Positions 14,040 through 30,031 of a stretch of DNA of 64,000 bases are shown one piece after another. The notes under the pieces were generated by a model that was not told the origin of the DNA, did no database searches, and worked only from the letters and a program-made list of their open reading frames with translations. A program made the position numbers and the translations under genes. This DNA is from Candidatus Omnitrophota bacterium (lineage in GTDB: Bacteria > Omnitrophota > Gorgyraeia > Zapsychrales > JANLHA01), in assembly GCA_023139575.1 (NCBI GenBank), contig JAGLNJ010000051.1, positions 5,926 to 69,925 on the forward strand. Direction: 5' to 3'. Position 1 is the stretch's first letter, and every line of letters starts with the position of its first letter.

Positions 14040-14048
14040 TCCGTCTCC

Positions 14049-15587
14049 TTACAAATTAGAGCCAGGCACTCTTGTAATCCATTGATGCCCCCGCTGATCA
14101 TGCACGCGGGAACGGACAACCAACAACATCGTTTCCAGATCAAGACACGTTAATTCAACGTTGGAGCCTTCATAACAATTGCCGCAAACCTCAACCGGGT
14201 TGGTCATGCCGAAAACACCATGAATAGTCGCAAAAGGAAGCCCTCCTGCCCCATATATAATAGTTTCGTCGGCTTCTTCCCAATTTACAGGAACACCGTT
14301 ACGGCAAAACCTCCCGGTATCGTTAGTTATTTTAAAAATCCTCTCTATAATATCAAGATTCTCCTGAATTAAAGTATGGCGTGTTTGACTGTTTTCCAAC
14401 TCATAAGCATTCGTTAACGCGCTTCCGTCTCCTTCAAGGCCGGTAAAAGAATACATTGTCATATCTGGCAGAAGACCAATCTTAATATAGGTTTGGGCAG
14501 GGTTTCGCAGCAAGAATATCTTAAGATCCATATCATCTTCGGCATTGTTTAAATCACCTTCTTGAGAATCCATAACTCTCAATTTTGTAACAACCCCATA
14601 TTGATCCGTTGACCAGTCAACAATACTTTCTTCTCTCAGATCCCCATCAACATCTATCAGTGTGTTAATCTGTTCGTCAGGTAATATCCCTCTTATCCCT
14701 TTATAAAAAGAGTCATCGAAAAACACATTTTTGTACTTCTTAAACTTGTCGTGGTTAACACCGGCCACCGGCATCCATTGCCATGCAAATTTACTTCGGG
14801 CAGCCGCAGTGGCTACATCAGGGGCACCGCCGCTAAAGTCCAAATCAAAACGATTCACTTCGCCAGCTTTAAAATCGTAAGGCTGGCTTTGATTGGCGAG
14901 CCTAGCAAAAAATATTGTACAGCCGACAATGCCAACACCGGGAAGAAACATGCATTGCGACTTATAACACGTACCATGAGGCGCTATGCTTTCCAAAGCA
15001 GGAACTGCAGCGTAATACGGGCTGCATTCCTGGAGGTTAACAACTCTTGTTCCTCCCGACCAGGTGTCCTGCCAGCTCACAGCGGCATTACCCGTGCCGG
15101 AAGGATAATTATAGCGGCGAAAAGCGGATAATGTAAATGGAAAACGCTGCCCGTTTATAAAAATATCCTGAACGGGAAGATTCCAATGCTCACAAATACC
15201 GTTTTCATTTGGGCATTCTACAGGATAAAACATAGCTTTAGTAAACGACGCGCTAGCTGATGCGACAAAAGGAATCCTGTCCCGAGTGCCTGTGGGTTGG
15301 GAAGCATCTGCCGACAACCTGTCTTCCAAAACCAATACTGACGCCGTATTCCGAGCTGCAGACGTCTGATAGGTTATGGTTCCATAGTTATATTTACCTT
15401 CTCCCGTGCGAAAAGACTCAATCATAGCCAGACGCATCGTCTTCAGGCTCTGATTCATCATTGAGCTGGACTGCAGGGCAGCCTTCACGATGAGCCCAAT
15501 AATAAAAATAACAATGGCTCCGAAAATGGCTAATTCGGTAGCTGATTGTGCTAATCTCAATTTTTTTTTCTTTGGGCTATTCAACAT
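14049..15587 (-). CDS. TadG/TadE-like large pseudopilin (512 aa)
   Basis: N-terminus KKKLRLAQSATELAIFGAIVIFIIGLIV (class-III-like A-Q-S-x-x-E-L plus a TM helix), followed by a large Cys-containing soluble domain. It lies immediately downstream of the pilin array. Confidence 0.55.
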   Translation of the reverse strand: MLNSPKKKKLRLAQSATELAIFGAIVIFIIGLIVKAALQSSSMMNQSLKTMRLAMIESFRTGEGKYNYGTITYQTSAARNTASVLVLEDRLSADASQPTGTRDRIPFVASASASFTKAMFYPVECPNENGICEHWNLPVQDIFINGQRFPFTLSAFRRYNYPSGTGNAAVSWQDTWSGGTRVVNLQECSPYYAAVPALESIAPHGTCYKSQCMFLPGVGIVGCTIFFARLANQSQPYDFKAGEVNRFDLDFSGGAPDVATAAARSKFAWQWMPVAGVNHDKFKKYKNVFFDDSFYKGIRGILPDEQINTLIDVDGDLREESIVDWSTDQYGVVTKLRVMDSQEGDLNNAEDDMDLKIFLLRNPAQTYIKIGLLPDMTMYSFTGLEGDGSALTNAYELENSQTRHTLIQENLDIIERIFKITNDTGRFCRNGVPVNWEEADETIIYGAGGLPFATIHGVFGMTNPVEVCGNCYEGSNVELTCLDLETMLLVVRSRVHDQRGHQWITRVPGSNL

Positions 15588-15614
15588 TTTTATATTAACT
15601 TCTCGGGTTGCTCT

Positions 15615-15944
15615 TTATGGAATTAACGATACGGATCCTGCCACGGACTGTGTCATATTCGCCGTATCAAGACGCAAAGTCCAATATCCCGGCTCGCTGT
15701 TAACAAGGTCTGGAACTGCTTCCGTATATGTTGTCGAATTGCCGGTCGTCGAATACGTCACCGCACCATTCATAAGCTCAGGATCATATTGATCGCCTAT
15801 CCCGTCAACGGCATCGCGCCACCTTCCCTGAATCCCTCTTTTAAAATAAATGCCGCCGACAAAAACAGCGGCCACAATAATCGTTGTCAACACAATATAC
15901 TCTGAAGCGCTTTGTCCCATCTTTTTTTTCATTCTAATGAGCAT
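15615..15944 (-). CDS. Flp-type prepilin paralog 7 (109 aa)
   Basis: MKKKMGQSASEYIVLTTIIVAAVFVGGI carries the G/QSxxEY class-III signal plus a TM helix. YFKRGIQGRWRDAVDGIGDQYDP is shared with paralog 4 and the 170-aa Cys-rich protein. RBS GGTGG lies upstream of the ATG at 15944. Confidence 0.7.
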   Translation of the reverse strand: MLIRMKKKMGQSASEYIVLTTIIVAAVFVGGIYFKRGIQGRWRDAVDGIGDQYDPELMNGAVTYSTTGNSTTYTEAVPDLVNSEPGYWTLRLDTANMTQSVAGSVSLIP

Positions 15945-15967
15945 TTTCCACCTTCTTTTTTCACCCT

Positions 15968-16318
15968 TTATAACGGATCCTTCTCGAGAAACCCCAAATT
16001 AGCATGCGTTTCTGTCATAACACTCTGCCCACGCATAATTGAATAAGTAGTCTCTCCCATATCTTCTGCTTTCGTTTTTGAGTCACTTAGCTGAATTTGC
16101 GCCGTTGAGTTAATCACTATCCCCATTTTTCCGCCAAGCTGTTCCGCCTCTTCTTGATTTCCCACTTGATCTGACATCATTTTTACCATGGCCTGCGCCG
16201 TTCTCTTGACCATTGGAGTCATAACCATTCCTATAGAAAATATAACGCCCAGCAAAAAGGTATATTCCAAAACTGTTTGCGCTTTTTTCTTTGATTGTTT
16301 GTTTTTGTATCTTATCAT
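15968..16318 (-). CDS. Flp-type prepilin paralog 6 (116 aa)
   Basis: KKKAQTVLEYTFLLGVIFSIGMVM; A at -1 of the putative cleavage site; hydrophobic helix. Confidence 0.6.
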   Translation of the reverse strand: MIRYKNKQSKKKAQTVLEYTFLLGVIFSIGMVMTPMVKRTAQAMVKMMSDQVGNQEEAEQLGGKMGIVINSTAQIQLSDSKTKAEDMGETTYSIMRGQSVMTETHANLGFLEKDPL

Positions 16319-16326
16319 AAATATAT

Positions 16327-16698
16327 TTAGTTAGCATACTTGGGCGCCAACTGATTAGTAAAAGTGTCCGTAGTTGAAGTGTGATCTATTTCAAAACGAA
16401 ACTCTTCAGCCAAGGTCGGAAACTGCTTTCGAATTATGTTACTTGCAACAACCCTCCTTGCCATTTGATTAACATAATATGGTTCGTATGAAAAATATCC
16501 AACTCCCTGGTAGTCGTCGCTGTCAAACTCCTCTTTTACTTCCTTGACCATGAAGAGGCGGACATCCCGTATTTTAGACTGAACAGCGCGGCGAAAATAT
16601 GTCGCCATAGACATAATAATGGCAACCACGAGAAAAAACATAATAGAATGTTGTATGGCCAAGCTTTGTCCGTTTTTATTTTTCAGTTGTTTAAGCAT
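16327..16698 (-). CDS. Flp/TadE-like pilin paralog 5 (123 aa, degenerate signal lacking Glu+5)
   Basis: NKNGQSLAIQHSIMFFLVVAIIMSMATYFRRAVQSKIR has G-Q-S but Q instead of E at +5; no obvious SD. Confidence 0.5.
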   Translation of the reverse strand: MLKQLKNKNGQSLAIQHSIMFFLVVAIIMSMATYFRRAVQSKIRDVRLFMVKEVKEEFDSDDYQGVGYFSYEPYYVNQMARRVVASNIIRKQFPTLAEEFRFEIDHTSTTDTFTNQLAPKYAN

Positions 16699-16764
16699 TA
16701 ATCTATAAATATTAGTATGAATATTAAATAATTAAAATAGAAAATTTGCTCTACCTCACAAAAT

Positions 16765-16807
16765 AAAGAATGGCTTACCTAAAATTCCCTCAAGTAAGCC
16801 ATTCTTT
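16765..16807 (-). terminator. Perfect 14-bp inverted repeat (intra-cluster hairpin/attenuator) between pilin paralogs 4 and 5
   Basis: AAAGAATGGCTTAC-N15-GTAAGCCATTCTTT. On the minus strand it is followed by ATTTTGTG, in the 156-nt gap between the pilin-4 stop and the pilin-5 start. Confidence 0.45.
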
Positions 16808-16853
16808 ATTTAACACATTAAACATTCCTTTTACTTAAACTAGGGCGATGAAA

Positions 16854-17174
16854 TTATCCCCAGAAAGGTTGCTCAGCGTTAATAATTTCCTGATTTGATG
16901 TAACTGTTGTAATCTCATCGGCTAGCAAAACTGATGAAGTTACTCCATCCTGAAACGTTTCTTGCGTACTTGCCGATGTAATTGTCATTTTAATTACATT
17001 TGTGTTTCCCGGAGCATACTGATCCCCGATGTCATCAGTAGCGCTACGCATACGACCTTGAATACCTCTTTTAATATAAACCTGTATAGATAAAAGAGCG
17101 CCTATCACGATGATAATCAAAACAGCATATTCGAGAGTGCTTTGCCCTTTCATCTTTCTTAAAAATTTAAACAT
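16854..17174 (-). CDS. Flp-type prepilin paralog 4 (106 aa from the ATG at 17174)
   Basis: MFKFLRKMKGQSTLEYAVLIIIVIGALLSI plus YIKRGIQGRMRSATDDIGDQYAP. AAGGAGG RBS lies 8 nt upstream of the ATG at 17174, while the ORF track starts 10 codons earlier. Confidence 0.7.
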   Translation of the reverse strand: MFKFLRKMKGQSTLEYAVLIIIVIGALLSIQVYIKRGIQGRMRSATDDIGDQYAPGNTNVIKMTITSASTQETFQDGVTSSVLLADEITTVTSNQEIINAEQPFWG

Positions 17175-17233
17175 TGATATATCCTCCTTATCAAATATTA
17201 GCATTTTAACGCTTTACCTAGCAAAGACTCACC

Positions 17234-17611
17234 TTAAATACCGTCAATCAAGCCGAGAGTCGTATCATACTGTGATACCTGAGAACCGCCAGTTCCACGA
17301 GTTCTGGTGTCATCGACGTTGTAAGCGATCATCGCCGAAAGATCAGCTCTTTGCTTTTGCAGTTCTGATTCGGTACTTGCCGTGGTAACAGCATAATTTG
17401 TTTCCAAGTAATACGGTTCGTATTGGTTAGTAGTGTCTCCGAGACCTGCTGTTTCGTTCGTTAAATATGTAGAAGCAGCGCGAATTCTGGCTTGGAGAGT
17501 TCTTTGCGCATAAGTCTGCATAGCAATTACAGCCGCGACGACCAAAGAAATCAAAAGGGCGTATTCAGCTGTCTGCTGTGCTTTTTTATTTTTAATGATT
17601 CTTTTTAACAT
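17234..17611 (-). CDS. Flp-type prepilin paralog 3 (125 aa)
   Basis: MLKRIIKNKKAQQTAEYALLISLVVAAVIAM; GGAGGT RBS upstream of the ATG at 17611. Confidence 0.65.
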   Translation of the reverse strand: MLKRIIKNKKAQQTAEYALLISLVVAAVIAMQTYAQRTLQARIRAASTYLTNETAGLGDTTNQYEPYYLETNYAVTTASTESELQKQRADLSAMIAYNVDDTRTRGTGGSQVSQYDTTLGLIDGI

Positions 17612-17667
17612 TTATTGTACCTCCGTAAACGTTATTTATAGTCTATCTTCATTTTTGTTAACTCCCA

Positions 17668-17874
17668 TTATGGAGCGACTGGACGGGAATCTGACAAGCG
17701 CTGAGCCATATCATCCATGTCATCTGTGCTGTCCGTCAGTGTCGTTTGAAGCTGTGTTTGGAAAAGTCCACCCGGACCTAAGAAAACAATAAGAATGGCA
17801 ACAACACCAGCTACAAGAATGATGTACTCTAAGGTGCTCTGCCCTTTTTCCCTTCTGTTAAGCTTTTGTAACAT
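17668..17874 (-). CDS. Flp-type prepilin paralog 2 (68 aa from the ATG at 17874)
   Basis: MLQKLNRREKGQSTLEYIILVAGVVAILIVFLG; AAGGAGG RBS upstream of 17874. The ORF track extends to 17934, but that 5' extension has no RBS. Confidence 0.7.
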   Translation of the reverse strand: MLQKLNRREKGQSTLEYIILVAGVVAILIVFLGPGGLFQTQLQTTLTDSTDDMDDMAQRLSDSRPVAP

Positions 17875-17935
17875 TATATTTTCCTCCTTACTTACTAAGT
17901 CTTTCTGCTTTTTTAGGCGTTTCCAAAAAAACACC

Positions 17936-18100
17936 TTAATTTGCGCGAAATCCTTTTTGAATTACCTGTTGAGTTGCTTGAACTGAACGAAACACGTAAG
18001 TACTCATTGCCATCATGGCAGCGGCAATTACAGCAACGACGAGAGCGTATTCGATAAAATTTTGACCTGCTTTACTTTTAATTTTCTTTATAAGCCTCAT
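17936..18100 (-). CDS. Flp-type prepilin paralog 1 (54 aa from the ATG at 18100; classic short Flp)
   Basis: MRLIKKIKSKAGQNFIEYALVVAVIAAAMMAMSTYVF; GAAGGTG RBS 3 nt upstream of the ATG at 18100. The track ORF extends to 18148. Confidence 0.7.
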   Translation of the reverse strand: MRLIKKIKSKAGQNFIEYALVVAVIAAAMMAMSTYVFRSVQATQQVIQKGFRAN

Positions 18101-18282
18101 CGCACCTTCACTTTCCGTGTACAGATAATTCGTGCCCAACTTAAGCAACTTAAAGTGGATTTTTATTGGGCAACTCTATTGCCGGCACGATCATGCCGAC
18201 ATCCGCATAACAAAAATCATTATGCAAGATTGAACCCCGTTAAAAACGGGAAGAAAGCCTTAATCAATTATGAAATAGCAAT

Positions 18283-18308
18283 AAAAAAGCCTCCAAGTGT
18301 TTTGGAGA
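18283..18308 (-). terminator. Rho-independent terminator downstream of the 629-aa hypothetical gene, upstream of the pilin array promoter region
   Basis: Stem GCCTCCAA-gtgtt-TTGGAG(ac) with a minus-strand T-tract (plus AAAAAA 18283-18288). Confidence 0.5.
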
Positions 18309-18526
18309 CTAGTGTGTTCTGTCTGTATTATCTTGTGTTATAGCTGTTTTAGAGTAAAAGTACCCTTGGTTGAACCGTATATAAAAAAGCCTCATGGCTT
18401 CTCCTTAGCTTAGTTACTTTATTTCACAAAACTTTACTTCGGGTGAATAAATTATAACATATATCTAAGATAACTGTCAAGGCGATACGCTCAAATAATC
18501 GTAGAAATAACAAAAATATATAAAAA

Positions 18527-20416
18527 TCATATAATGCCCAATAAAAGTTTTTTTCCTTCCAACATAATTTTTTGCTCACTAACCCTTCTTACCGCAAAAT
18601 TTAATTTTTCTATTTTCTCCCTTGGCAAGCTGTCTCTTTTAAACGCTATTTTTATGTAGTTTGCTGTTTCTTGGAAATGTCCCGGCAAAGCATAAAACCC
18701 GCTCAGCATTTCTTCCCTTGTCAATGCGGCGCATGAAAGAGGGAAGTACCTGTATTGGCAAAAAATATTTAATTGGTCCAGCAGGGTTTGCAGAATTTCA
18801 TTAAAATTATAAGAACTTGAAATAAAACGAGTTAAGTCATAATCTAAACTTATCTGTTGCTCATAGAAGGCTTTCTTTTCTTCAAATGCTTTTTTGATGG
18901 CCCCTTCTTCCCTTCCCGCATTCTGCAAATATCCCTTGAACCCTTCAGATGCGGCTGAGGCCTGTAATATAATGCCGAGAAGCGGATCCGCAAATGCTTG
19001 GCTATCATCAATATTATTAGTAATTACCGCCAGAAAAGGTTCTTTTTCAACATTTTTTGAAACAAAATAAACCTTTACCATCGTAGCACTGTCACTCATA
19101 ACAAAAGAGTTTAGATGGATCGAGCTTTCTCTATAATAATACTTCTCGTCTCCTTGAATTTCATGATAATGCTGTGACAGTTTGCAGGCCTTTAGTATCA
19201 TTTGAAACGAAGTCTGACCCGGCAACAAACCACAGACCAACGCCTTTTTTTTGCCAGGAATAAAAGGAAAAGAGGAAATTTCTTCATTTTTAAAATTGCG
19301 TAATACAATTTTGTCCAATCTGACTTTTGATGTTTTGTCTACCGCTTGGCACAAATGTCCAAAAATATCAATATTGCCATCATTGATAAAATCAATATTC
19401 CATGTTTGGACATTCTCAATAATTTCAGAATTGATCCGAGACACTGCCGAGTACAGTGAGGAGGCTAATCCTATCGAAGGCGGTTCTTTCCAAATTGACG
19501 TAAAAGACCCATCTAAATTAATTTGCTTTCCATCGCTTAAATAAACACTTATTATATTAACTTCCTTAAATAGTTGGGGCAACTCAATGGCAACCGCCAG
19601 CTTCAACTTGTTAAAATCGCATTCCTCTTTAATAGCCTCAATGGCAGACAAAGCAGCTTTGTTGTACAAAACATTATTTAATCTCCAAATTCCAGAAAAA
19701 GCACTTTGCTCAATATTTTGTGTATCCCTTAACCCAAACATTTCCAGAAATAATAAAATATCTGGATTGTTTAATCTGACGGATTTTGCCCACTCAAAAT
19801 TACTGGAAAACAATTGATTCAGCAGAGAGTTTTCTGTTAATTCATTAATTGCAGCCTTCAAAAAAACACTTCCCAAATTTGCCAAAGGAACAGATTTCTC
19901 TTCTTTTGTTTCCTGAATGGACATTAAGCCGGCTTTGTCCTTAGTAGCCTTTTCTCTAAGAGTTTCCTTTGGTAATTTTATTTTGGACATTCTAGACATT
20001 TCAGGTGGAGCCGTATCCTCCATAATAAGCGTCCGCTTCTCTTGCGGAAACAGTTCTTTAATTTTTGACTCCGGGATTTGAAATTTTTTGGAAGATTTTT
20101 TTGCTACCGACCTCCTCCCAACCGGGCTACTCAGACTGGAACTTTTGAAGATAGCGTTGATAGAGGATTTAGAAACTTTAATGTCAAAATTCTTTTGAAC
20201 AGTATCGACAAGCCTTCTGCAGCTTATATCAGGTTCTTTAGTTTTACAAGCTACAATAAAGACTACAACTTCTTTTTTTAATTTATGTATAACACCCATA
20301 GTTTTACAAAATGGACAATTGAACTTTCTAAGTATATCACAAAACAAGGCTTGGAAAAAGCGCCTTAGTTGATTTTTCATCTGCCTTAACTTTAATGTCC
20401 AGAAAAATATCAACAT
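18527..20416 (-). CDS. Hypothetical protein (629 aa), soluble, embedded in the tad locus; possible N-terminal HTH-like segment
   Basis: Long ORF with no recognisable catalytic motifs. The N-terminal region ...VACKTKEPDISCRRLVDTVQKNFDIKVSKSSINAIF looks HTH-like. It is bounded by its own terminator. Confidence 0.5.
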   Translation of the reverse strand: MLIFFWTLKLRQMKNQLRRFFQALFCDILRKFNCPFCKTMGVIHKLKKEVVVFIVACKTKEPDISCRRLVDTVQKNFDIKVSKSSINAIFKSSSLSSPVGRRSVAKKSSKKFQIPESKIKELFPQEKRTLIMEDTAPPEMSRMSKIKLPKETLREKATKDKAGLMSIQETKEEKSVPLANLGSVFLKAAINELTENSLLNQLFSSNFEWAKSVRLNNPDILLFLEMFGLRDTQNIEQSAFSGIWRLNNVLYNKAALSAIEAIKEECDFNKLKLAVAIELPQLFKEVNIISVYLSDGKQINLDGSFTSIWKEPPSIGLASSLYSAVSRINSEIIENVQTWNIDFINDGNIDIFGHLCQAVDKTSKVRLDKIVLRNFKNEEISSFPFIPGKKKALVCGLLPGQTSFQMILKACKLSQHYHEIQGDEKYYYRESSIHLNSFVMSDSATMVKVYFVSKNVEKEPFLAVITNNIDDSQAFADPLLGIILQASAASEGFKGYLQNAGREEGAIKKAFEEKKAFYEQQISLDYDLTRFISSSYNFNEILQTLLDQLNIFCQYRYFPLSCAALTREEMLSGFYALPGHFQETANYIKIAFKRDSLPREKIEKLNFAVRRVSEQKIMLEGKKLLLGII

Positions 20417-20476
20417 TTAAATATTTAATCTTTAAAAAAAGATGTATACTTTAAATAGTCACATAATTATCATTCC

Positions 20477-20734
20477 TTGGAAAAAGGATTCTTTATGCTT
20501 AAATGTCCCTATTGCTGCGAAGAACTAACATCCGAAGTTAATCGCTGCGTTCACTGCTCCCAATTTCTCATTGATGATATTATTCATTCAGATTTTCCCA
20601 GCCTGGACAAAAAGAAATGTGTTTTTTGCGGCAAAAAAATACTAAGTCGAGCTAAAATATGCAAGCACTGCCACAAATGGCTTGATGAATTAGATCAAGC
20701 GGTTCGTGATGTAGATCCTGATGATTTGGTTTGA
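20477..20734 (+). CDS. Small double zinc-ribbon protein (85 aa, four CxxC pairs)
   Basis: CPYCC...CVHC...CVFC...CKHC. It is the only plus-strand gene inside the minus-strand tad block. Confidence 0.45.
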   Translation: MEKGFFMLKCPYCCEELTSEVNRCVHCSQFLIDDIIHSDFPSLDKKKCVFCGKKILSRAKICKHCHKWLDELDQAVRDVDPDDLV

Positions 20735-20749
20735 TTCACTCCCGAAAGG

Positions 20750-21094
20750 CTATGCTTCTTTTATCAACTCATCCCCTATTTGAGTTTGCGTTTCATCAAT
20801 CGTCCCCTCTGGCAATTCAATACAATAATTTGCGCGAATAAAATAGGGACCCATCCTATAAGGTTTGATCCTTTTTACAAGACCGATAACTTTATTATTT
20901 TTGTCTACAAAAATAACATCGATTGTGAAACGCATAAAAAGCATGTGGATGGAGCGGCATTGTGTAATGATAAAGCCGTGCCCTTGCGGTAAATTGTCGC
21001 GCCCTAATAAACCAACAAGACGTGATAGCGCTGTATCCGCCAGCTCAGTTTGCTGAGAGATCGTGGTGTTTCGTGTTTTATTGATTATTTTCAC
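20750..21094 (-). CDS. DUF192 (COG1430) family protein
   Basis: LSRLVGLLGRDNLPQGHGFII..CRSIHMLFMRFTIDVIFVD...CIELPEGT matches the DUF192 pattern (GLMGR...GMLF...IHMFFMRFPIDVIF...ELPAG). Its start overlaps the ATPase stop by 4 nt. Confidence 0.65.
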   Translation of the reverse strand: MKIINKTRNTTISQQTELADTALSRLVGLLGRDNLPQGHGFIITQCRSIHMLFMRFTIDVIFVDKNNKVIGLVKRIKPYRMGPYFIRANYCIELPEGTIDETQTQIGDELIKEA

Positions 21095-23262
21095 AAGGCA
21101 GGAACTGTTTCCGTAAAGATTTTTTTCTCTAACGAAAGACCTATACGGTTAAAATCTTCCATGAACTTTGGGACATATCCTGTGGGTTTAAAGTCGCCGA
21201 GTATTTTCCCGTCTTCTGTTTTCCTTTTTTGGTCAAAGACAAAGACATCGCGCAAATCAAGCTGATGATCCTTTTCTATTCCGGCAACCTCGGTAATTCC
21301 TGTTATCTTACGAGTCCCGTCAGAGGTTCGGGCAACATGAACAATAATATCAATGGCTGAGGAAACCATTTCATTGATAGCCCGGATAGGCAATTCGATA
21401 CCGCTTAAGAGGATCATTGAACTCATACGAACCAAAACATCATGGCATGAATTCGCGTGCAGCGTCGTCATAGAGCCGTCATGACCCGTGTTCATAGCCT
21501 GAAGCATATCCAGGACCTCACGGCCGCGGCACTCCCCGATGATAATGCGGTCCGGGCGCATACGCAGCGAATTAATAAACAGATCTCGAATAGTGACCTC
21601 GCCGCGACCTTCAACGTTTGCCGGGCGGGATTCCAGTCGTCCCCAATGGGTTTTCTTTAACCGTAATTCAGCGGCGTCTTCTATCGATATAATTCTTTCA
21701 TTGTCAGGGATGAAATGAGAGAGAACATTTAAAAGCGTCGTTTTCCCGGCGCCGGTTCCTCCAGAAACGATAATATTTTTTCTTCCAACCACACAGGCCT
21801 CAAGAAAAGTAGCCATGTTTTTAGAAAAACTTTTGTACTTAAGCAGCAAGTCGGCCACGCTCAAGCGCTCAACACCAAATTTTCGAATGGTAATCATGGG
21901 GCCGGTCAAAGAAAGAGGGGGAATAATAGCGTTGAAGCGTGAGCCGTCCGGAAGACGAGCGTCGACCATCGGAACAGATTCGTCAATACGTCTACCGAGA
22001 GGAGCGATAATACGGTCAATAATCGCGCGCATCTGCTGATCAGAAACAAACTTCCTGTTAGTTAAAATAATCTTGCCGCCCTTTTCTATATACAGATCGT
22101 TTTTGCTGTTAACCATAATATCGGTAACCTCCGGATCCGCAAGAAACTCTTCCAAAGCCCCCAATCCTAAAGCCTCATCAACGATCTCCTTAACAATCCT
22201 CGCCCGCTCTTCATGCGAAGAAATCAGCGCCCCTTTTTCTTCCATAAGGAGGTTGCTGACAATTTTCTTGGCGGACTCTTTCAGCTCTAAGGCTTTTTGG
22301 GGATCCCCCAACATCTCCGGCGTCAAGTCTTCCACATGCAGGCGATCCACAAGCTTCTCGTGAATCTTCTTTTTAAGAGCGACAATCTCATCTTCCTCTT
22401 TCACAAAACCATCGCCACCGGCAGGCATGTTCTGTGATGATATGCCGAATTTCTGCCAGAATTCACCCGGCTTATCCATTCCTTCGGTCATGCGAACCTT
22501 AGCCACTTCCGCGCCCTGCACAAAAAGGTCTTCCTTTTTGAGGTCTGCGATCATTTGCTTAAAGGCTTCCGCTACCTTCGAACGAGGGCTGTCGATAACA
22601 CAGGGGACGCCTCGATTCAAAGCCATACCCACGGATCTTCCATCGGAAGGAATCCTCGCAAATATTTCGCAGCCTAATACATTGCGGACCTCCTGCCAGG
22701 CAACGCCTCCCCGGCTTTCCGATCGGTTTAAGACCAGCTTGATCATCTTAAAAGGGAAATGCAGGCTTTGCAGCACCTCTAGACACCATTTGATTTGATA
22801 TACAGCTAAAACATCAGGCGTGGCCACCAAAAATATCAAGTTGGAATGATCCAAAGCAGTCAAAAGGGTTTCGCTAAAAGCCTTCCCCGCGTCTATGATG
22901 ATATAATCATAGATCGTAGAGACCGTCTTGAAAAAAGGTTTGATGTTTTCTGCTGTAATATGACCGATCTGTTTAGAATGAATAACGGCCGGCAAAAAAT
23001 CCAGACCGCAGGAATGAGAAATGACAAATTTCTTAATAATGTCCGGACTGTCGGCCTTCTCTATTTCCGGCAAAAGATGAACCAGGGCGTGGCGGGGAAC
23101 AAGGCTTAACATTCTGGACATGTCTTGCCCTGCTTGAAAATCCAAATCAAGAAGCAACACCCTTTTACCCGACACGGCTAAAGAGGTTGCCAAGTTAACG
23201 GCGGCAAAAGTCTTTCCAACACCGCCCTTATTACTAAATATAGTTATGGTTCGAGCTTCCAT
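21091..23262 (-). CDS. Fusion protein: N-terminal ParA/MinD-type (TadZ/CpaE-like) ATPase domain + C-terminal CpaF/TadA secretion ATPase
   Basis: Residues 1-250 begin ITIFSNKGGVGKTFAAVNLATSLA (deviant Walker A KGGxGKT, MinD/ParA fold). Residues ~380-723 are CpaF-like: IVSGGTGAGKTTLLN (Walker A), GRLESRPANVEGRGEVTIRDLFINSLRMRPDRIIIGECRG, LQAMNTGHDGSMTTLHANS. Confidence 0.8.
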   Translation of the reverse strand: MEARTITIFSNKGGVGKTFAAVNLATSLAVSGKRVLLLDLDFQAGQDMSRMLSLVPRHALVHLLPEIEKADSPDIIKKFVISHSCGLDFLPAVIHSKQIGHITAENIKPFFKTVSTIYDYIIIDAGKAFSETLLTALDHSNLIFLVATPDVLAVYQIKWCLEVLQSLHFPFKMIKLVLNRSESRGGVAWQEVRNVLGCEIFARIPSDGRSVGMALNRGVPCVIDSPRSKVAEAFKQMIADLKKEDLFVQGAEVAKVRMTEGMDKPGEFWQKFGISSQNMPAGGDGFVKEEDEIVALKKKIHEKLVDRLHVEDLTPEMLGDPQKALELKESAKKIVSNLLMEEKGALISSHEERARIVKEIVDEALGLGALEEFLADPEVTDIMVNSKNDLYIEKGGKIILTNRKFVSDQQMRAIIDRIIAPLGRRIDESVPMVDARLPDGSRFNAIIPPLSLTGPMITIRKFGVERLSVADLLLKYKSFSKNMATFLEACVVGRKNIIVSGGTGAGKTTLLNVLSHFIPDNERIISIEDAAELRLKKTHWGRLESRPANVEGRGEVTIRDLFINSLRMRPDRIIIGECRGREVLDMLQAMNTGHDGSMTTLHANSCHDVLVRMSSMILLSGIELPIRAINEMVSSAIDIIVHVARTSDGTRKITGITEVAGIEKDHQLDLRDVFVFDQKRKTEDGKILGDFKPTGYVPKFMEDFNRIGLSLEKKIFTETVPAL

Positions 23263-23389
23263 AAAATTATATTTTACATGCTTTACAAAAAAAATCCAGT
23301 TAAATTTATTTTAAAAAAGCGATTGCTTCCAATTCGTGCGTATAAAACGGGAGAAAATCATGAACGTTTCAGAAAAATGAGGTCAAAAA

Positions 23390-25270
23390 CTATATCTTCT
23401 TGATTGTTTCAATCGTCGGAGAACATTCTAAACCCAGCTCATCTAAAATGGCTTCTTGACTATAGACAATGGGAATCGTAACAACCAGTTCTTCCAGCTC
23501 TACTTCCGAAGGAAAAGGATCAAAAGGCGCCAAAATCTGCGCAGTATTTATAGCGTCTTTATCAAAAATATCATACCCGGAAGATTCTTTTATTGTCGCG
23601 TCCATTAAGGATCCATCACTCAATATGGTTAAAGAAAGCTTAACTGTTCCTTGCCATCCTTCTTCTTTAGCCTTATATGGAAATGATATCGTTCGCGAAA
23701 TATTTTGTTGTATCGTCTGTACATACTCTGTGATAGCTTTAGAAATGTTTTCATCATCAATGATTTCTTCCGCTAAAGCTGTTTCTTCGTCGGTAACAAC
23801 GTCTATGGCTTCTTCACCCATTGTTTCGGGCTCTTTACCTTCTTCAGCGGCGGCTGTCTTATCCATTCTCTCTTCCAAAAAGGACGCTATCTCCTCTTCG
23901 TATTCATCAACAGCGGGTTCCTCAATGACGATCTCACCTTCTTCCAGTTTTTCGACGTCTTCTGATAAATCTGCCAACTCTTCCTCTAGTTCATATAACA
24001 TCCCGTCATCTTCTACAGCTTTTTCTTCCGACGGCAAAGACATCTGCCGAAAAATACGCGGAGTCAATGTAATAACAACTTCTTGCTCTTGATTTGCCGT
24101 AGGTGTTATCTTAGATCTGAACAGCGCTCCGACAATTGGTATGGCGCTGATAAAGGGAACTCGTTTAACCTCTTCGCTTTCATTGTGCTTAATCAATCCG
24201 GCAATAACAACCGTCTGCCCGTCATTCAACAGCAGTCGGGTATCGGCAGATCGTGTCGTGAAGGCAACATCATCGCCTACAGCATTAGCATTATCAATAT
24301 CCCTGATGGCAACAGACAAAAGGATATCGATTTTTCCATTTTTCACTTCCGGCGTTACCGTCAAATCAATGCCGTACTCCTTAAAAGTCACATTTTCTTG
24401 AACGCTACCAGCCACATTACCCGTAGTCGTCGTTCGAATCGGAATTTCCCCGCCGACTAAGAAAGAAGCGTCTTCACCATCGACCACAACAATGCTGGGC
24501 TTGGACAAAATTCGCCCTTTCCCTTCCTTAATAAGGGCTTTTACGGTAGCCTGTATTATTGAAGTACGATTAATGTCGCCGATTTTGAACAAATTTTCTA
24601 CATTGTTTCCATCAAACTCCGGCAAGGTCTCTTGATAAACAAGATTTAGAGAATCCGCACTATCTGTTGCCCAATCGAATCCTAATTCTTTCGTAAGCGT
24701 TGTGTTCAACTCAGAAATCTGTACGTCAATCTGAATAAGGTCGCCTTCTACTCTAACCATATCAATGACTTGCTCACCAAAATCGTCAAGGATGAGCTCC
24801 AGCATTTCCTGCTCGCTTTTAATAACAGTCCCTGTAGCTACGACCTTTCCTTCATATGGGTTTGGCGCCAATTTAACGTCCTTGATTTCAGCCGCATCCA
24901 GCAGGCTCTGTAAACGGGAAACAATTGACCCCATGTCTTCTTCGAAAACGCGAGCAATTATAGTTCTTTTCCCGTATTCATCCCAGATGAAAATCGGCGT
25001 CTCCCCAATAGCCTGACCGACAAGAAGCACTTCATTGACATCCGCATTAGCGATATCTACAATGCCCGGTTGGCTGATGGCAATCCTTGTAAGAGAATAC
25101 ACTTTTAAAGTGACCAGATCCCCTTGATAAAGGAAGACATCTCTTTTTTCCAAAGTATCAATAACGTCTTGCGTTTGGGCATGAGCGTTAAACGGAAACA
25201 CTGCCACTGTCATAACAATAAAAACGATTTGTAAAAATTTTTTGCTTTTTGTTTTTTTTGTGATCATCAT
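23390..25270 (-). CDS. cpaC: CpaC/RcpA-type secretin with a polyacidic linker and a C-terminal TonB_C-like domain
   Basis: Signal peptide. Secretin core GRILSKPSIVVVDGEDASFLVGGEIPI...VPFISAIPIVGALFRS. Then a ~90-aa Glu-rich linker (EEELADLSEDVEKLEEGEIVIEEPAVDEYEEE...). Then ISFPYKAKEEGWQGTVKLSLTILSDGSLMDATIKESSGYDIFDKDAINTAQILAPFDPFP, matching the TonB C-terminal pattern (YP..A...G.eG.V.v.f.I..DG.v.d..v..SSG...lD.aAl.A....F.P). Confidence 0.8.
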   Translation of the reverse strand: MMITKKTKSKKFLQIVFIVMTVAVFPFNAHAQTQDVIDTLEKRDVFLYQGDLVTLKVYSLTRIAISQPGIVDIANADVNEVLLVGQAIGETPIFIWDEYGKRTIIARVFEEDMGSIVSRLQSLLDAAEIKDVKLAPNPYEGKVVATGTVIKSEQEMLELILDDFGEQVIDMVRVEGDLIQIDVQISELNTTLTKELGFDWATDSADSLNLVYQETLPEFDGNNVENLFKIGDINRTSIIQATVKALIKEGKGRILSKPSIVVVDGEDASFLVGGEIPIRTTTTGNVAGSVQENVTFKEYGIDLTVTPEVKNGKIDILLSVAIRDIDNANAVGDDVAFTTRSADTRLLLNDGQTVVIAGLIKHNESEEVKRVPFISAIPIVGALFRSKITPTANQEQEVVITLTPRIFRQMSLPSEEKAVEDDGMLYELEEELADLSEDVEKLEEGEIVIEEPAVDEYEEEIASFLEERMDKTAAAEEGKEPETMGEEAIDVVTDEETALAEEIIDDENISKAITEYVQTIQQNISRTISFPYKAKEEGWQGTVKLSLTILSDGSLMDATIKESSGYDIFDKDAINTAQILAPFDPFPSEVELEELVVTIPIVYSQEAILDELGLECSPTIETIKKI

Positions 25271-25346
25271 ATTTACTCCCTAAACTTCCAGTTAACCTCA
25301 TAAAAAGTGAATAACCATAGCATACCTTATTCTTAACCGTTAACCT

Positions 25347-26144
25347 CTAATTTCTAACGCCACCTCTATAAATATCAATAAAAGTGGTTGGAGCGTCTCC
25401 GCCTGTTGTAACCGCCTCTAAAGGCATTTGAGTGTGTGGAACCAATAATTCCGTTCCTTGTTTTTCAAAAACATATTCTGATAAAGCTCCCCAAGAGGCT
25501 GCCTGCATAATTTCTGTTTCTGTTTCAGCAGGGGCTCTTAAAATCAATTGCATTTTTCCGTTTTTTTCAATAAATGACATAAGGCTGGCTTCTTCCGGCG
25601 TCAAGGCAAAGGTTATATTTAATGACCTGGCTTCTTGTTGCTTTTCATATCCTCCCGGAGCCTGCAAATTTGTCCCCACCGCTAAAATCTGGGCATTTTG
25701 GAAGACCATTGAAGTAATCGTGTTTTTGCCTGTCTTGTGTTGAATCGGTATTTCCATATGCGCCAAAACATCAACATAATCTCCAGGATTGATAAGGCCT
25801 CCGACCGCCGATAGAGAGTCTATCATAACCGTATACGCTCTCTTACCCGCAGGAGTACGTAAAGCCAATGAAGATTTTGGCACTGAGGGCGTCTGGGATT
25901 GAGAATCTTGCCCGGAACCAGCTATCACAACCTGACGGCTAGCTAATTGTTTGATTTCTTTACGCAAGGTTTCTAAGTCTCGCTGTAAAGGTTTGATCTG
26001 TTTGGTTTCATATTCTTGAGAAAGCTTGGCTGTTGCCTTTTTGATATTTCCTTCAATATGATTCCCTGTAAGAATAGCCGCAACCGCACCTAGCCCCACC
26101 GCACATGCAATAATAGCAAACTGTCTTTTGGCTTCTAAATTCAT
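25347..26144 (-). CDS. cpaB: Flp pilus assembly protein CpaB/RcpC (SAF domain)
   Basis: N-terminal TM anchor. YTVMIDSLSAVGGLINPGDYVDVLAHMEIP...FQNAQILAVG is typical of CpaB. It lies immediately upstream of the secretin. Confidence 0.75.
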   Translation of the reverse strand: MNLEAKRQFAIIACAVGLGAVAAILTGNHIEGNIKKATAKLSQEYETKQIKPLQRDLETLRKEIKQLASRQVVIAGSGQDSQSQTPSVPKSSLALRTPAGKRAYTVMIDSLSAVGGLINPGDYVDVLAHMEIPIQHKTGKNTITSMVFQNAQILAVGTNLQAPGGYEKQQEARSLNITFALTPEEASLMSFIEKNGKMQLILRAPAETETEIMQAASWGALSEYVFEKQGTELLVPHTQMPLEAVTTGGDAPTTFIDIYRGGVRN

Positions 26145-26148
26145 ATAC

Positions 26149-27126
26149 CTACTCCTCTAATAGTTTATCGTTAATATTCACGACCGTTTTATTTCGAAGC
26201 TCTTGAAGAGTTTCGTTGATTGTCTGTCTCTGCTTAAAAATCGTCAAACCTTCAACAATTTGCTCTTTCACGTCCTCAAAAGCCTTCTGCTCTCCACCTT
26301 TTTTCTCTTCCAGTTTAACAATATAAAAACCTTCCGGCCCTTTGAATACAGCGCTAACTTCGCCTGTTTCTAAAGCAGCGACGACTTTTCTCATTTTAGG
26401 GAAATCAAAAATAGCTTTGAACCCCATATCTCCTTTTTTCCAGGCAGACTTTGCCTTAGAGTGGGTCTTCACCATTTCTTGAAAATCTACGTCCTTATAT
26501 AGCTCAATGCGGATACTTTTTGCCGTTTCTTCATCTTTCACAACAATTTCCCGAACGCGCCATTCAACAGGATCAACAAATTCCGTTTTATTGTTTTCGT
26601 AATATCCCTCAGCTTCTTCTTCTGTCGCTTTTGCTTCTTTTACGATCTGGTCAGCCATTTCGCGAACGATAAGGGTGCGGCGGAACTCTTCCACAGCATC
26701 AACAATATCTTTTTTTTCTGCTATCCCGGTTTTTTCAGCCTCATGAACTATTAGTTGCTGATTGATAAGCTCTTCTAAAACCAGCTTGTTCTGATCAACA
26801 TTCTTTGTATCATAATCGGGCACCAGCTCTTTAAGAGCTTTAAGCCGTTCATTAAATTCTTCTATAGAAATCGCCCAACTGCCTACTGAGGCTAAGACAT
26901 TTTTTGCCATCGGCTTTGAGGCTTGATTAAATTTTTTTGATTTTATACCGGGAGGGTTGGTATTTGCCTGAGAAACTTTATTGCTTTGTGCCACTTCCGG
27001 GGCTGGTGGTTTTTTCTTGCCCTTTAGCTTATCGGTTAGCTCTGTAATCTTATCGCAACCTTGTGTGCTTGCCAGAATTAAGGTAAAAACACAAAAAAAA
27101 CCAATTTTTTGTTTAAATGCTGTCAC
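26149..27126 (-). CDS. PpiC-type peptidyl-prolyl cis-trans isomerase lipoprotein (PrsA/SurA-like)
   Basis: Lipobox LILASTQGC. Parvulin-like region ...WRVREIVVKDEETAKSI...GDMGF...FKGPEGFYIVKLEEKKG. It is the first gene of the operon, 4 nt before cpaB. Confidence 0.65.
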   Translation of the reverse strand: MTAFKQKIGFFCVFTLILASTQGCDKITELTDKLKGKKKPPAPEVAQSNKVSQANTNPPGIKSKKFNQASKPMAKNVLASVGSWAISIEEFNERLKALKELVPDYDTKNVDQNKLVLEELINQQLIVHEAEKTGIAEKKDIVDAVEEFRRTLIVREMADQIVKEAKATEEEAEGYYENNKTEFVDPVEWRVREIVVKDEETAKSIRIELYKDVDFQEMVKTHSKAKSAWKKGDMGFKAIFDFPKMRKVVAALETGEVSAVFKGPEGFYIVKLEEKKGGEQKAFEDVKEQIVEGLTIFKQRQTINETLQELRNKTVVNINDKLLEE

Positions 27127-27395
27127 AAAGACCTCCTTTTAAGGCATATTTGTAAGTATAACTTTTATATATTTAAAAAACAAGTAAATTCCCGTTTTTT
27201 TTGCATTAATGCATTTTATCTAACAAGTTGTGACTTATCGGTTTGCCTGATTTTCAGAAAGCGCTTTCTTATTTATTCCAAAATATAACATCAAAGGTTT
27301 TCCTTAATAGTCCTCTTCCGCAATCAGTTGATTTGATTTTTCTTCCAAAATTTGTTAATTTATCAATTAATTCAAGGCCTTCTCCTATATTACGC

Positions 27396-28202
27396 CTACC
27401 GCTCATTTAGTCGGTTCATCGGCAAACGGCGTCTTGCCTTCATAACGTTTTCTTTAAATATTTGACAATAAACAACTTGCTCTTTCCTCGCAGACGCTTT
27501 AACCAAAATATTACCCCAAGGGTCTATAACCATACTATGCCCGTACGCCCAAATCCCCCGCCCTCCTTGTCCTGCTTGATTAGGGGCTAGGACATAACAT
27601 TGGTTTTCAATAGCTCGGGCCCGTAACAAAGGCTCCCAATGAGTCTCACCTGTCTTTTGTGTAAAAGCCGCCGGAACGGCCAAGACATGACATCCTTTTT
27701 TTAAGTAAAACTGATACATTCCCGGAAAGCGCAGATCATAACAAATTGACATCCCCACCTTGAGGGTGTCCGCCGCAACAAACGTCTTTCTTTTTCCGGG
27801 AGTCATATAATTGGCTTCATTAATTTTTTTATTTCCTATGCGCGCTTTAAAAAGATTGTTTTTGCGATATCGCGCTATGATTTTTCCTCGTCGGTCGATA
27901 AAAACTGATGTATTGTAAAGAGCCTTGCTGCTGCTATCCTTTTCATAAACGGACCCTGCCAAAATATAAATCTTATGCTCTCGGGCAATCTGCATAAGTG
28001 GTTCCAGGGACTGTCCGGGAATCTTCTCAGCGACGTTATTTAAAATATGCCTTTTCCCCGTCTTGCCTCGATAGTGAAAAACTTCCGGCAATAAAACAAA
28101 CTCCGCTCTTTGCCGAACCGCTTTTGTCACAAAAGAAACCGCTTTGGCAATATTCTTCGCCTTATCTTTTCCGGCGTTCATTTGTACAAGCGCAATTTTC
28201 AT
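27396..28202 (-). CDS. Carbon-nitrogen hydrolase family protein (nitrilase/amidase superfamily)
   Basis: MKIALVQMN...FVLLPEVF...ICYDLRFP... is the CN-hydrolase Glu-Lys-Cys triad context. Confidence 0.75.
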   Translation of the reverse strand: MKIALVQMNAGKDKAKNIAKAVSFVTKAVRQRAEFVLLPEVFHYRGKTGKRHILNNVAEKIPGQSLEPLMQIAREHKIYILAGSVYEKDSSSKALYNTSVFIDRRGKIIARYRKNNLFKARIGNKKINEANYMTPGKRKTFVAADTLKVGMSICYDLRFPGMYQFYLKKGCHVLAVPAAFTQKTGETHWEPLLRARAIENQCYVLAPNQAGQGGRGIWAYGHSMVIDPWGNILVKASARKEQVVYCQIFKENVMKARRRLPMNRLNER

Positions 28203-28858
28203 TGCTTTTTTCCCGACGATATCATTTTTTTATATGTTTCGCCGTATTCCTCATAACATTTGGTATAAAACTCCTGCTGGCGCAATTTATTACGCCAGGC
28301 AACGAGGCGTGAATACGGCGTAATATCAAGCTTGGCTAATTCCACTGGGTCGAGAGTGGCCAACAAATTAATATCGGCCAATGATATTGTGTCTCCCGGC
28401 AGGTAGGGGTGATGTTTTAAACTGTTTTCCACCGCTGGTAAAAACCTGTTAAAAAAGTTCACGCCGTCTTGTTCCGAGCGTTTGTCAACCTCAACCGGAA
28501 TAATCGGGGCGAACAATCTATTGAACGCCACCTTGTTTATCGCCCCCCCGATATGCATTGAAACAAAATCAAGCCATTGATCAATGAGGCTTCGGGGTTT
28601 TAGCTCCTGCGGATATAGCCCGCTTTGCTTTTTATGACAGAGGTATCTGCAAATCGAGTTGCTTTCAAACAAAACAAATCCATCGTCCTCAATAACAGGA
28701 ACCTTTCCCGCCGGGTGCATGCGTAAATATTCGGCTGTGCGGGTTTCCCCGTCTTTTACTTTTACGCGGACATAATCATATTCTATGTTGAGTAAATTAG
28801 CCACAAATCGCACTTTATTCGACGAAGTGGACAAATCAGCCCCATAAATCTTTAACAT
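28199..28858 (-). CDS. Glutathione S-transferase family protein
   Basis: MLKIYGADLSTSSNKVRFVANLLNIEYDYVRV...GKVPVIEDDGFVLFESNSICRYL (GST N-terminal thioredoxin-like) plus a GST C-terminal helical domain. Start placed at the ATG at 28858, preceded by GGAGG; the track ORF extends to 28954. Confidence 0.7.
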   Translation of the reverse strand: MLKIYGADLSTSSNKVRFVANLLNIEYDYVRVKVKDGETRTAEYLRMHPAGKVPVIEDDGFVLFESNSICRYLCHKKQSGLYPQELKPRSLIDQWLDFVSMHIGGAINKVAFNRLFAPIIPVEVDKRSEQDGVNFFNRFLPAVENSLKHHPYLPGDTISLADINLLATLDPVELAKLDITPYSRLVAWRNKLRQQEFYTKCYEEYGETYKKMISSGKKQ

Positions 28859-29147
28859 TATTTTTCCCTCCTGAGGTTTTTTGTTATTATTCCTAATATA
28901 TAACGCTAAGGCAAGTACTAATGACAATTTTATTGGTTTTCCCTTATTTTCCAAAAAGGAATTCTTATCCCAAAATTACTGGCGCATGATTATGTGTTGC
29001 TTGTCAAAGCAGCCCTCTTTGACGAAAATTTTTTCTCGCTTTGAATATCTTTCCGCTTGTAAATGTTCTTCATAAAATATAGAATAAGTAATGCTCCCGT
29101 GCCAATAAAAACAATCTTCGAGAACCTGATATGAAAACGTAGAACTT

Positions 29148-29759
29148 GTGAATATACCTCAAATCAAAAATTTCACCAGCCACGAATCGATGACCAGCAC
29201 TATACAAACGGATCCTTTGGCATACCGCTGGTTCGCCTTTCTCATCATGCAACCTGCCGTAATTTCCCAATTGTCGTTGGAGAATGAAAACGCGGTGCTA
29301 TACAAAAATCTAAAAAAAACGGTTTTAAAACAAAAACTTTTACACCTGATCCTTTTTTTTGTTCTAATGGCGGGAACGATCGCGCAACAATATGCGCTAT
29401 ACACATTATCGTTTTTTTTCTTTTATCCAAACTGGAAATTCAGTCATAGCAAACGGCATTTAGTTTCACAAATCAGCATGAAAATCATCAACCGGGATTT
29501 TACAGAGCCAAATCTAAAAAAATCAACTTTTTTTCAAATATGTGAAAAATACAGCCGGGACTACAGCATCCCTTCTTTCGTTGATAAAACCTATATTTCA
29601 GACAAGATCTTGAGATATACGGCGCTTGTCACTATCATTACATTAATTCTTATTCGGCCAGTGCCGTCCGTCTTGTTTTTCTTCATTGCCTTCTTTTGTG
29701 TTTACATCCTCATCCGCATTATTTTAAACACGGATTTCTTTTACCGTGTCTTAAAATAA
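29148..29759 (+). CDS. Hypothetical membrane protein (203 aa)
   Basis: ORF with several hydrophobic segments; no motif recognised; AT-rich; could be spurious. Confidence 0.3.
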   Translation: MNIPQIKNFTSHESMTSTIQTDPLAYRWFAFLIMQPAVISQLSLENENAVLYKNLKKTVLKQKLLHLILFFVLMAGTIAQQYALYTLSFFFFYPNWKFSHSKRHLVSQISMKIINRDFTEPNLKKSTFFQICEKYSRDYSIPSFVDKTYISDKILRYTALVTIITLILIRPVPSVLFFFIAFFCVYILIRIILNTDFFYRVLK

Positions 29760-30031
29760 ATCGATGGATCAAACTTGCACAAATAAAAAGGGAGTTAGAC
29801 GCCTTGAATAGTTGGACGTCTTCGATCCATAAAACGCTATTTAGTACTATATAATACTCCCGCAAGCAAATTTAGCATGGGCAGTTAGTGGACATTTAGC
29901 GTTCCAACTCTAGCCAAAACCTGCCAACGGCTGCCAAACCCCTTTTTCCAACATCACATGTTCTCGTCGGTATTTATCCCTAAAACCAAAAAACCATGCA
30001 GTTATATGCCACATGGCTTCCCTTAAAAAAA

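Follow-up and report, generated by a model that had tools for sequence, protein, structure and literature searches.

We analysed a 64-kb window (the whole stretch of 64,000 nucleotides) of contig JAGLNJ010000051.1 from a Candidatus Omnitrophota bacterium, which carries a Tad pilus locus, and focused on its tadZA gene, encoding a TadZ-TadA fusion ATPase of 723 amino acids (aa) (positions 21091-23262, minus strand; stop codon at 21091-21093). All genes of the locus lie on the minus strand, in the order rcpC, secretin, tadZA, a DUF192 gene, a 629-aa open reading frame (ORF), pilins, pilin-like large proteins and a T2SSF pair. The tadZA frame started with ATG and ran through 723 codons with zero internal stops, and Pfam placed a ParA-type and a T2SSE domain in the same translation. 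The initial annotation, which had given no strand for the gene, had proposed one polypeptide joining a ParA/MinD-type, TadZ/CpaE-like ATPase to CpaF/TadA, and the continuous frame and two-domain Pfam result bore this out. It had also read the ORF as opening with KGGVGKT and lacking a receiver domain, and we placed this deviant Walker A at residues 12-18 (23209-23229; K12 the signature lysine, K17 the P-loop lysine). An in-frame stop was located 18 codons upstream of the ATG, the listed ORF being already maximal; with the P-loop beginning at residue 12, there is therefore no room for a receiver domain in tadZA.

The window protein was 100% identical to the GenBank entry 'Flp pilus assembly complex ATPase component TadA [Candidatus Omnitrophica bacterium]' (P0001). 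Its best 120 homologue clusters (90% clustering) were 716-737 aa long, with 66-77% identity and 99% query coverage, except for one truncated 686-aa entry, and both the ParA-type and the T2SSE Pfam domains were present in these clusters. They came from many independent assemblies, some with contigs >3 Mb, and the named ones were almost all Candidatus Omnitrophota, so that the search for orthologous fusions proposed at the outset returned the same layout across the best 120 clusters. An artefact in the linker (nucleotides 22396-22515) is excluded because the full-length architecture is kept across independent assemblies, an argument from conservation and not from reads. The stop or frameshift that had been considered there was not found, the frame being open and the orthologues full length. 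On these grounds a sequencing error or a decaying remnant is excluded as the source of tadZA.

The N-terminal domain (N-domain; residues 1-249, 22516-23262), recognised from Pfam, an AlphaFold2 (AF2) model and its relatives, is a predicted TadZ-like ParA/MinD-type domain without a receiver domain (ARD). The Pfam families AAA_31, CbiA and ParA covered residues 4-240, and a PDB sequence search matched ParA/MinD-family structures to residues 5-232. An exhaustive search with residues 1-313 against 1.84 billion 50%-identity representatives returned three groups. The first comprised close orthologues, of which many were truncated. The second consisted of seven distant full-length fusions of 682-746 aa, all with ParA and T2SSE domains in Pfam; each of these seven 50%-identity clusters aligned colinearly with the window protein in one high-scoring segment pair (HSP), at 42-52% identity, and the two that were checked lay in complete Tad loci that lacked a separate tadZ. 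The third was a long tail of 370-420-aa proteins, matched over their residues ~140-380, whose members carried Response_reg and ParA-type domains, one of them being named CpaE by JGI. Two of these relatives were looked up in their contigs, and in both cases the gene sat in a canonical Tad locus, with rcpC on one side and a separate tadA on the other. The N-domain belongs with TadZ/CpaE and not with MinD/Soj because its nearest unfused relatives are receiver-plus-ParA tadZ/cpaE genes; the generic ParA N-domain that the initial annotation had also considered is not what these relatives, ARD-plus-ParA genes within Tad loci, point to.

Residues K12, G13, G14, V15, G16, K17, D39, D41 and D124 showed no variation among the fusions aligned, 27 from Omnitrophota and 17 from Bdellovibrio (the alignment itself is numbered one lower, since its reference had Met1 clipped). 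The P-loop lysine K17 was kept in 116/120 Omnitrophota orthologues and 12 of 16 sampled fusions, compared with only 18 of 60 split TadZ proteins. Mean column conservation of the N-domain among orthologues (0.74-0.88) equalled that of much of the motor. Judged from these residues, the nucleotide-binding site of the N-domain (K12, K17, D39, D41, D124) is complete.

The TadA/CpaF ATPase core spans residues 366-723 (21094-22167; Pfam T2SSE, 1e-57) and is preceded by a helical region (residues 290-365, 22168-22395) that forms the N-terminal part of the TadA module. T2SSE matched residues 366-645 with 195.9 bits (cut-off 24.9), and the PDB sequence search aligned residues 327-710 with Caulobacter CpaF (9e24/8rjf/8rkd) at E~2e-107, the next family scoring 1e-38. 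The C-terminal part of the AF2 model likewise matched CpaF in Foldseek (E~1e-25). We located the Walker A GGTGAGKTT (residues 501-509, 21736-21762), the Asp box ERIISIEDAAEL (residues 522-533, 21664-21699), the Walker B RPDRIIIGECRG (residues 569-580, 21523-21558) and the His box TGHDGSMTTLHAN (residues 592-604, 21451-21489), all four of which were invariant in the alignments of fusions (A1, A2); a D-E-x-x-x-L-K-x-x-I-H motif in the helical region was common to all fusions. A complete CpaF module with Walker A and Asp and His boxes, as first annotated, thus stands with all four boxes in place and T2SSE above its cut-off. In NCBIfam the C-terminal part gave TadA-, VirB11- and FlaI-type matches. 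The score against TIGR03819, a TadA-family conjugal-transfer-associated ATPase, was 324.6 bits, under the cut-off of 373.15; this is no argument against membership of the Tad-pilus TadA family because the model describes a different TadA sub-family. By motifs and homology, the C-terminal 430 residues read as a standard TadA/CpaF motor.

A linker predicted to be disordered (residues 250-289, 22396-22515; AF2 predicted local distance difference test score, pLDDT, <50) joins the two ATPases. Among the Omnitrophota orthologues, conservation fell to 0.56-0.62 over residues 242-301, compared with roughly 0.75-0.98 in most domain cores, and no other region was relaxed to this degree. Within the linker, an FWxKFG motif (residues 268-273, 22444-22461) was ≥80% conserved among Omnitrophota sequences and, in the linker alignment, absent from Bdellovibrio TadZA. 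This motif is a candidate partner-binding or membrane-binding element and may contribute to docking. A full-length AF2 monomer model was built on 44 Omnitrophota and Bdellovibrio sequences and had a mean pLDDT of 65.9 and a predicted template modelling score (pTM) of 0.41. The N-domain (residues 1-249) was confident, with pLDDT mostly ~80-95; helices appeared at about residues 286-364, and confidence in the TadA core was patchy. The structure prediction suggested with the initial annotation thus yielded a confident N-domain, a low-confidence linker and a helical region, with a patchy TadA core.

The remaining genes of the locus, all on the minus strand, are as follows. The rcpC/cpaB gene (25347-26144; Pfam RcpC, 3e-23) is followed by an rcpA/cpaC secretin gene (23390-25270; Pfam Secretin 3.5e-41, T2SS-T3SS_pil_N), whose product carries a C-terminal TonB_C domain (1e-15) at residues 529-603. 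This TonB_C part was likewise conserved in L014 (62% identity) and L019 (42%), two further Omnitrophota loci, and it is therefore a lineage feature and not an accident. The rcpC-secretin-tadZA order was kept in most fused loci checked. The DUF192 gene (20750-21094; Pfam DUF192, 4.9e-19) overlaps the tadZA stop by 4 nucleotides, and homologues were found in other fused Tad loci (L014, 8159-8500; L003, 14638-14895; L060, 8901-9227); this recurrence in tadZA-type loci suggests an uncharacterised accessory component of the Tad subtype. The 629-aa ORF (18527-20416), between the DUF192 gene and the pilin genes, had no Pfam or NCBIfam match and lies in the region's lowest-GC stretch (0.36), and a tblastn search of the other fused Tad loci examined gave no match; the ORF may be an insertion. 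We considered it as a TadB/TadC fusion and rejected this, given that it had no family match and no obvious membrane helices by reading, and that the real T2SSF genes lie at 6478-8285.

Seven tandem Flp-like pilin genes (70-125 aa; 15615-18148) were recognised from their translations, most with G/xxxxEY-type leaders; the gene at 17668-17934 matched Pfam Class_IIIsignal, and the other six were assigned by motif inspection only. They are followed by genes for three proteins (512, 103 and 1604 aa) that have hydrophobic N-termini resembling those of pilins and no family matches, and the resulting pilin and pseudopilin set (8902-18148) is unusually large for a Tad locus. Two T2SSF platform genes (tadB/tadC; 7431-8285 and 6478-7368; Pfam T2SSF 3.8e-18 and 5.8e-14) were 30-38% identical to TadB/TadC of other fused loci. 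Directly downstream of tadC, a stop-free frame of at least 1,864 codons (2-5593, minus strand) runs past the left edge of the window. Giant Omnitrophota proteins have been reported flanked by pilus or secretion genes (bioRxiv 10.64898/2026.06.07.730766), and this frame may encode one of them. An rRNA operon had been considered for the ORF-poor stretch at 1-6400; Rfam found none, and the giant ORF crossing the window edge occupies it instead.

No separate tadZ was found in the Tad locus, and the 64-kb window contained one other ParA-like gene (40904-41794). This gene is a chromosomal partition ATPase because it lies beside parB and near dnaA, dnaN, gyrB and gyrA and a flip in GC skew. In the origin region (30243-42681), gyrA, gyrB, dnaN and dnaA are encoded on the minus strand, the GC skew flips at ~38-40 kb, and parA/parB occupy 40904-42681; this places the Tad locus within ~12 kb of the chromosomal origin. 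The Tad locus of V. archaeovorus (12382-29832) is likewise near the origin (Seymour et al.; PMC10066038). A 6S RNA was detected at 55066-55221 (65.6 bits).

We scanned the GTDB species representatives by tblastn, which returned 80 loci. True single-ORF TadZ-TadA fusions were present in 12 of them, 11 established by per-domain tblastn and stop-codon checks and one by inspection. They belonged to Bdellovibrionota/Oligoflexia (L005-L008 and L010, the last a complete Bdellovibrio genome), a metagenome-assembled genome (MAG) labelled "Deltaproteobacteria" (L004), Omnitrophota (L014, L019), an Elusimicrobiales MAG (L074), two unclassified MAGs (L022, L060) and a WOR-3 MAG (L062, the one found by inspection). 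Apparent fusions across a dozen phyla (Firmicutes, Chloroflexota, Actinomycetota, Acidobacteriota, Pseudomonas and others) were rejected, about 60 of the 80 loci being adjacent split tadZ and tadA genes. Coverage in the scan was misleading because a canonical tadZ ends with its ParA domain just upstream of tadA and so mimics one match. All 11 tblastn-detected fusions had ≤29 aa upstream of the ParA domain, compared with ≥104 aa, typically 130-200, in every complete split tadZ. Fusion and ARD loss coincided without exception in this sample, whose loci are not phylogenetically independent.

Other N-terminal arrangements of TadA were also seen in the scan. An FHA-like N-terminus, recognised by reading, replaces TadZ on TadA in three loci (L064, 5395-7263; L069, 570-2375; L081, 5317-7080). 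The MAGs concerned are labelled Streptomycetaceae, Proteobacteria and Lentisphaeria, and two of the three TadAs grouped with TadZ-fused TadAs in a neighbour-joining (NJ) tree of the TadA domain. An Eremiobacterota MAG (L073, 5065-8913) showed a 1,282-codon stop-free frame with a TadZ-like P-loop, a full TadA and a TadB-like C-terminal membrane region, which may represent either a triple fusion or, given the high GC content of the genome, an artefact of long open frames.

The initial annotation took the fused architecture to be undescribed, and this belief is out of date because a preprint of 8 July 2026 explicitly describes an 'atypical TadZA hybrid' in tad locus 1 of B. bacteriovorus, with the same ARD-less layout: a ParA/MinD-like TadZ region, a flexible linker and TadA (bioRxiv 10.64898/2026.07.08.737194). 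In that study a tadZA deletion was not obtained, and depletion together with tadB blocked prey invasion; the TadZ region with the linker bound the polarity hub RomR, and TadZA was highly dynamic and not statically polar (bioRxiv 10.64898/2026.07.08.737194). The B. bacteriovorus proteins are 738-739 aa long and annotated only as TadA or as a type II secretion system/type IV pilus ATPase. The window protein aligned with B. bacteriovorus TadZA in one HSP of 702 residues at 39% identity (E=2e-162). The Omnitrophota Tad locus has itself been described, with Omnitrophota TadB/TadC grouping with Bdellovibrionales (Seymour et al. 2023, PMC10066038). We found no mention of a TadZ-TadA fusion in the main text of that paper, in a 2026 Omnitrophota preprint or in Denise et al. 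2019, and no literature report of the fusion as the norm in Omnitrophota. On this comparison, the window gene represents an Omnitrophota branch within the TadZA family, which was named only recently, and the architecture itself is already known.

Taking the evidence as a whole, we consider it likely that TadZA is the cytoplasmic ATPase of the Omnitrophota Tad (Flp, type IVc) pilus, with the fusion coupling motor recruitment. CpaF is a hexameric bifunctional motor (PMC11300603), and by homology the TadA module would form a hexamer that drives polymerisation and depolymerisation of Flp pilins via the TadB/TadC platform. The fusion would fix TadZ and TadA at 1:1, and six nucleotide-binding TadZ domains would surround the motor ring on flexible tethers, kept at its cytoplasmic face or periphery. 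These domains would pair into dimers in an ATP-dependent way and, jointly with the linker, engage a partner involved in cellular positioning or assembly; recruitment of the motor to the secretin/RcpC site, or its engagement, would in this way be coupled to the nucleotide state of TadZ. The receiver-type function, present in cis in canonical TadZ, is presumably supplied in trans, as by RomR in Bdellovibrio. Canonical TadZ/CpaE is needed for positioning of the machine and assembly of the secretin, and an outer cytoplasmic ring of CpaE surrounding that of CpaF has been proposed, not demonstrated (PMC12637624). By analogy with these systems, it is reasonable to propose that the fusion would hard-wire motor placement to the partner ATPase in Omnitrophota.

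A concatenated NJ tree of the TadZ and TadA domains (82 taxa, 591 columns) placed the 22 fused proteins in an exact bipartition with a bootstrap of 99/100. Several observations weigh against the proposed role and the common origin suggested by this tree. The AF2 model is poor in parts of the TadA core (pTM 0.41) and uninformative on inter-domain contacts. The best structural match of the N-domain, a Chlorobium tepidum ParA-family ATPase (3ea0), is a stand-alone ParA-family protein, and the matches listed for the N-domain, by sequence or by fold, did not include E. rectale TadZ (3fkq). Localisation, dimerisation and partner binding in Omnitrophota are extrapolated from Bdellovibrio and canonical TadZ. 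The single-domain NJ trees of TadA and TadZ supported a fused-only split at just 6/100 and 5/100, respectively, and raw identity put the window domains no closer to those of Bdellovibrio than to some split TadZ/TadA pairs. Because these raw identities do not decide the matter, the value of 99/100 rests on one crude distance method and a sample picked by similarity to one query.

One alternative is that the TadZ domain mainly gates the bifunctional motor, controlling its engagement or a switch between extension and retraction, and is not a localisation tether. The P-loop lysine, found in 116/120 Omnitrophota orthologues vs 18/60 split TadZ, suggests retained catalysis, and the six ParA-type domains tethered to each hexamer could combine into three ATP-sandwich dimers. 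Omnitrophota are described as largely ultra-small cells (PMC10066038), in which polar targeting may matter less, and Bdellovibrio TadZA is highly dynamic with no static polar position. Against gating as the main role stand the binding of the Bdellovibrio TadZ region and linker to RomR and the requirement for canonical TadZ/CpaE in positioning and secretin assembly, and the AF2 model is uninformative on the inter-domain interface through which gating would act. A regulatory, motor-gating role may be kept as a live alternative, slightly favoured by the retained P-loop lysine and small cell size; as a replacement for the recruitment role set out above, we judge it unlikely.

A second alternative concerns ancestry: the Omnitrophota and Bdellovibrio fusions may have arisen independently by stop-codon loss, sharing an architecture and no common fused ancestor. 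The adjacency of tadZ and tadA makes fusion a one-step event, and further N-terminal fusions of TadA exist (FHA-TadA, and TadZ-TadA-TadB in one frame). The single-domain trees did not resolve the question, and the window N-domain was 25-31% identical to Bdellovibrionota N-domains and up to 40% identical to a split Firmicutes TadZ. However, the concatenated tree gave one fused group (99/100), ARD loss and the rcpC-secretin-tadZA order are held in common, the alignment is colinear through the linker, and Omnitrophota TadB/TadC are reported to group with Bdellovibrionales (PMC10066038). Independent origins therefore appear improbable, and the sequence case for a single fusion event followed by spread is good but not conclusive.

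Combining these points, ARD-less TadZA may constitute a distinct Tad subtype of single origin, passed horizontally between lineages that include predators or epibionts (Bdellovibrionota, Omnitrophota, some Elusimicrobiales, WOR-3 and unclassified MAGs); in this subtype a catalytically intact MinD-like switch, tethered 1:1 to the bifunctional motor, would gate its engagement, and the receiver function would have moved to a separate hub protein. We offer this combined proposal tentatively and regard it, in all its parts together, as rather doubtful. If it were true, the fusion would be 'Rosetta-stone' evidence for direct TadZ-TadA contact in all Tad machines, and TadZ may be the unassigned outer cytoplasmic ring seen by cryo-electron tomography (cryo-ET).

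A third alternative takes the N-domain for a MinD/Soj-like ATPase captured by chance and unrelated to TadZ/CpaE. The top curated NCBIfam match was archaeal MinD (minD_arch, 93.1 bits), and the sole CpaE-type model reached 38.7 bits. The best structural and PDB-sequence match was 3ea0 (template modelling score 0.90, root-mean-square deviation ~2 Å, E=1.4e-16), and the next Foldseek matches were FlhG, FleN, MinD and Soj. The full KGGVGKT also resembles MinD more than typical TadZ. However, all NCBIfam MinD/ParA-type models scored far under their cut-offs on the N-domain (minD_arch 93.1 bits vs 201.75; minD_bact 79 bits vs 212.9). The best unfused matches among the 1.84 billion representatives were receiver-plus-ParA proteins of ~400 aa and not MinDs of ~260 aa, two of which were verified as tadZ in Tad loci, and the window locus has no other tadZ, the true chromosomal parA lying elsewhere beside parB. 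We consider chance capture very unlikely. A further reading, in which a stop or frameshift overlooked in the linker turned neighbouring tadZ and tadA genes into one, is effectively refuted and has a negligible chance of being right: tadZ does lie directly upstream of tadA in most canonical loci, and a tblastn 'coverage 7-719' had made ordinary split loci resemble fusions, an easy error, but the frame is continuous, the ARD expected at the start of a normal tadZ is missing, and the same single ORF recurs in the best 120 Omnitrophota and best 120 Bdellovibrio clusters from independent assemblies, including complete genomes.

TadZA has until now been described in one organism, in a recent preprint. 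In the present results, many Candidatus Omnitrophota have it as their standard Tad ATPase, and it also occurs in Elusimicrobiales, WOR-3 and unclassified MAGs, with the fusion tied to loss of the receiver domain in the examined sample. Bdellovibrio genetics could stand in for uncultured, ultra-small and possibly predatory Omnitrophota. The covalent joining of TadZ to TadA offers natural evidence for their working in direct contact, which Caulobacter cryo-ET left unsettled. Retention of the P-loop lysine in most fused N-domains, and its absence from most split TadZ, is a biochemically testable difference. TadZA is not a new system type here, and a Tad specialist aware of the 2026 preprint would not be surprised by it.

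Compared with known systems, the closest fold, 3ea0, is also ARD-less and ~245 aa long, but it is a stand-alone protein not joined to TadA. C. crescentus CpaF (PDB 8rjf, 8rkd, 9e24) shares the four catalytic boxes, and its residues 111-491 match window residues 327-710, whereas its approximately first 110 residues are replaced in the window protein by the folded TadZ domain and linker. Canonical TadZ/CpaE proteins (A. actinomycetemcomitans TadZ, C. crescentus CpaE and E. rectale 3fkq) likewise have a ParA/MinD-superfamily domain whose P-loop is of the KGGxGx[ST] type, their coding sequence lies directly upstream of tadA, and this class includes the nearest unfused relatives of the window N-domain. 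The window protein differs from them in that it lacks the ARD, its TadZ domain is covalently joined to TadA, and it keeps the classical P-loop lysine that is absent in most split TadZ sampled.

Bdellovibrio TadZA differs from the window protein in phylum (Bdellovibrionota vs Omnitrophota), in an N-domain identity of only ~26% (L010) and in the linker motif, which is LQRLK...PKP in Bdellovibrio and FWxKFG in Omnitrophota. Omnitrophota keep tadB and tadC in the locus with a DUF192 gene after tadZA, whereas in Bdellovibrio tadB directly follows tadZA and tadC is elsewhere; the Omnitrophota secretin has a TonB_C domain, and the RomR interaction is known for Bdellovibrio only. The two are nevertheless colinear over 702 residues, have the same rcpC-secretin-tadZA order and fall in the same group of the concatenated tree, and both lineages have predatory or parasitic members.

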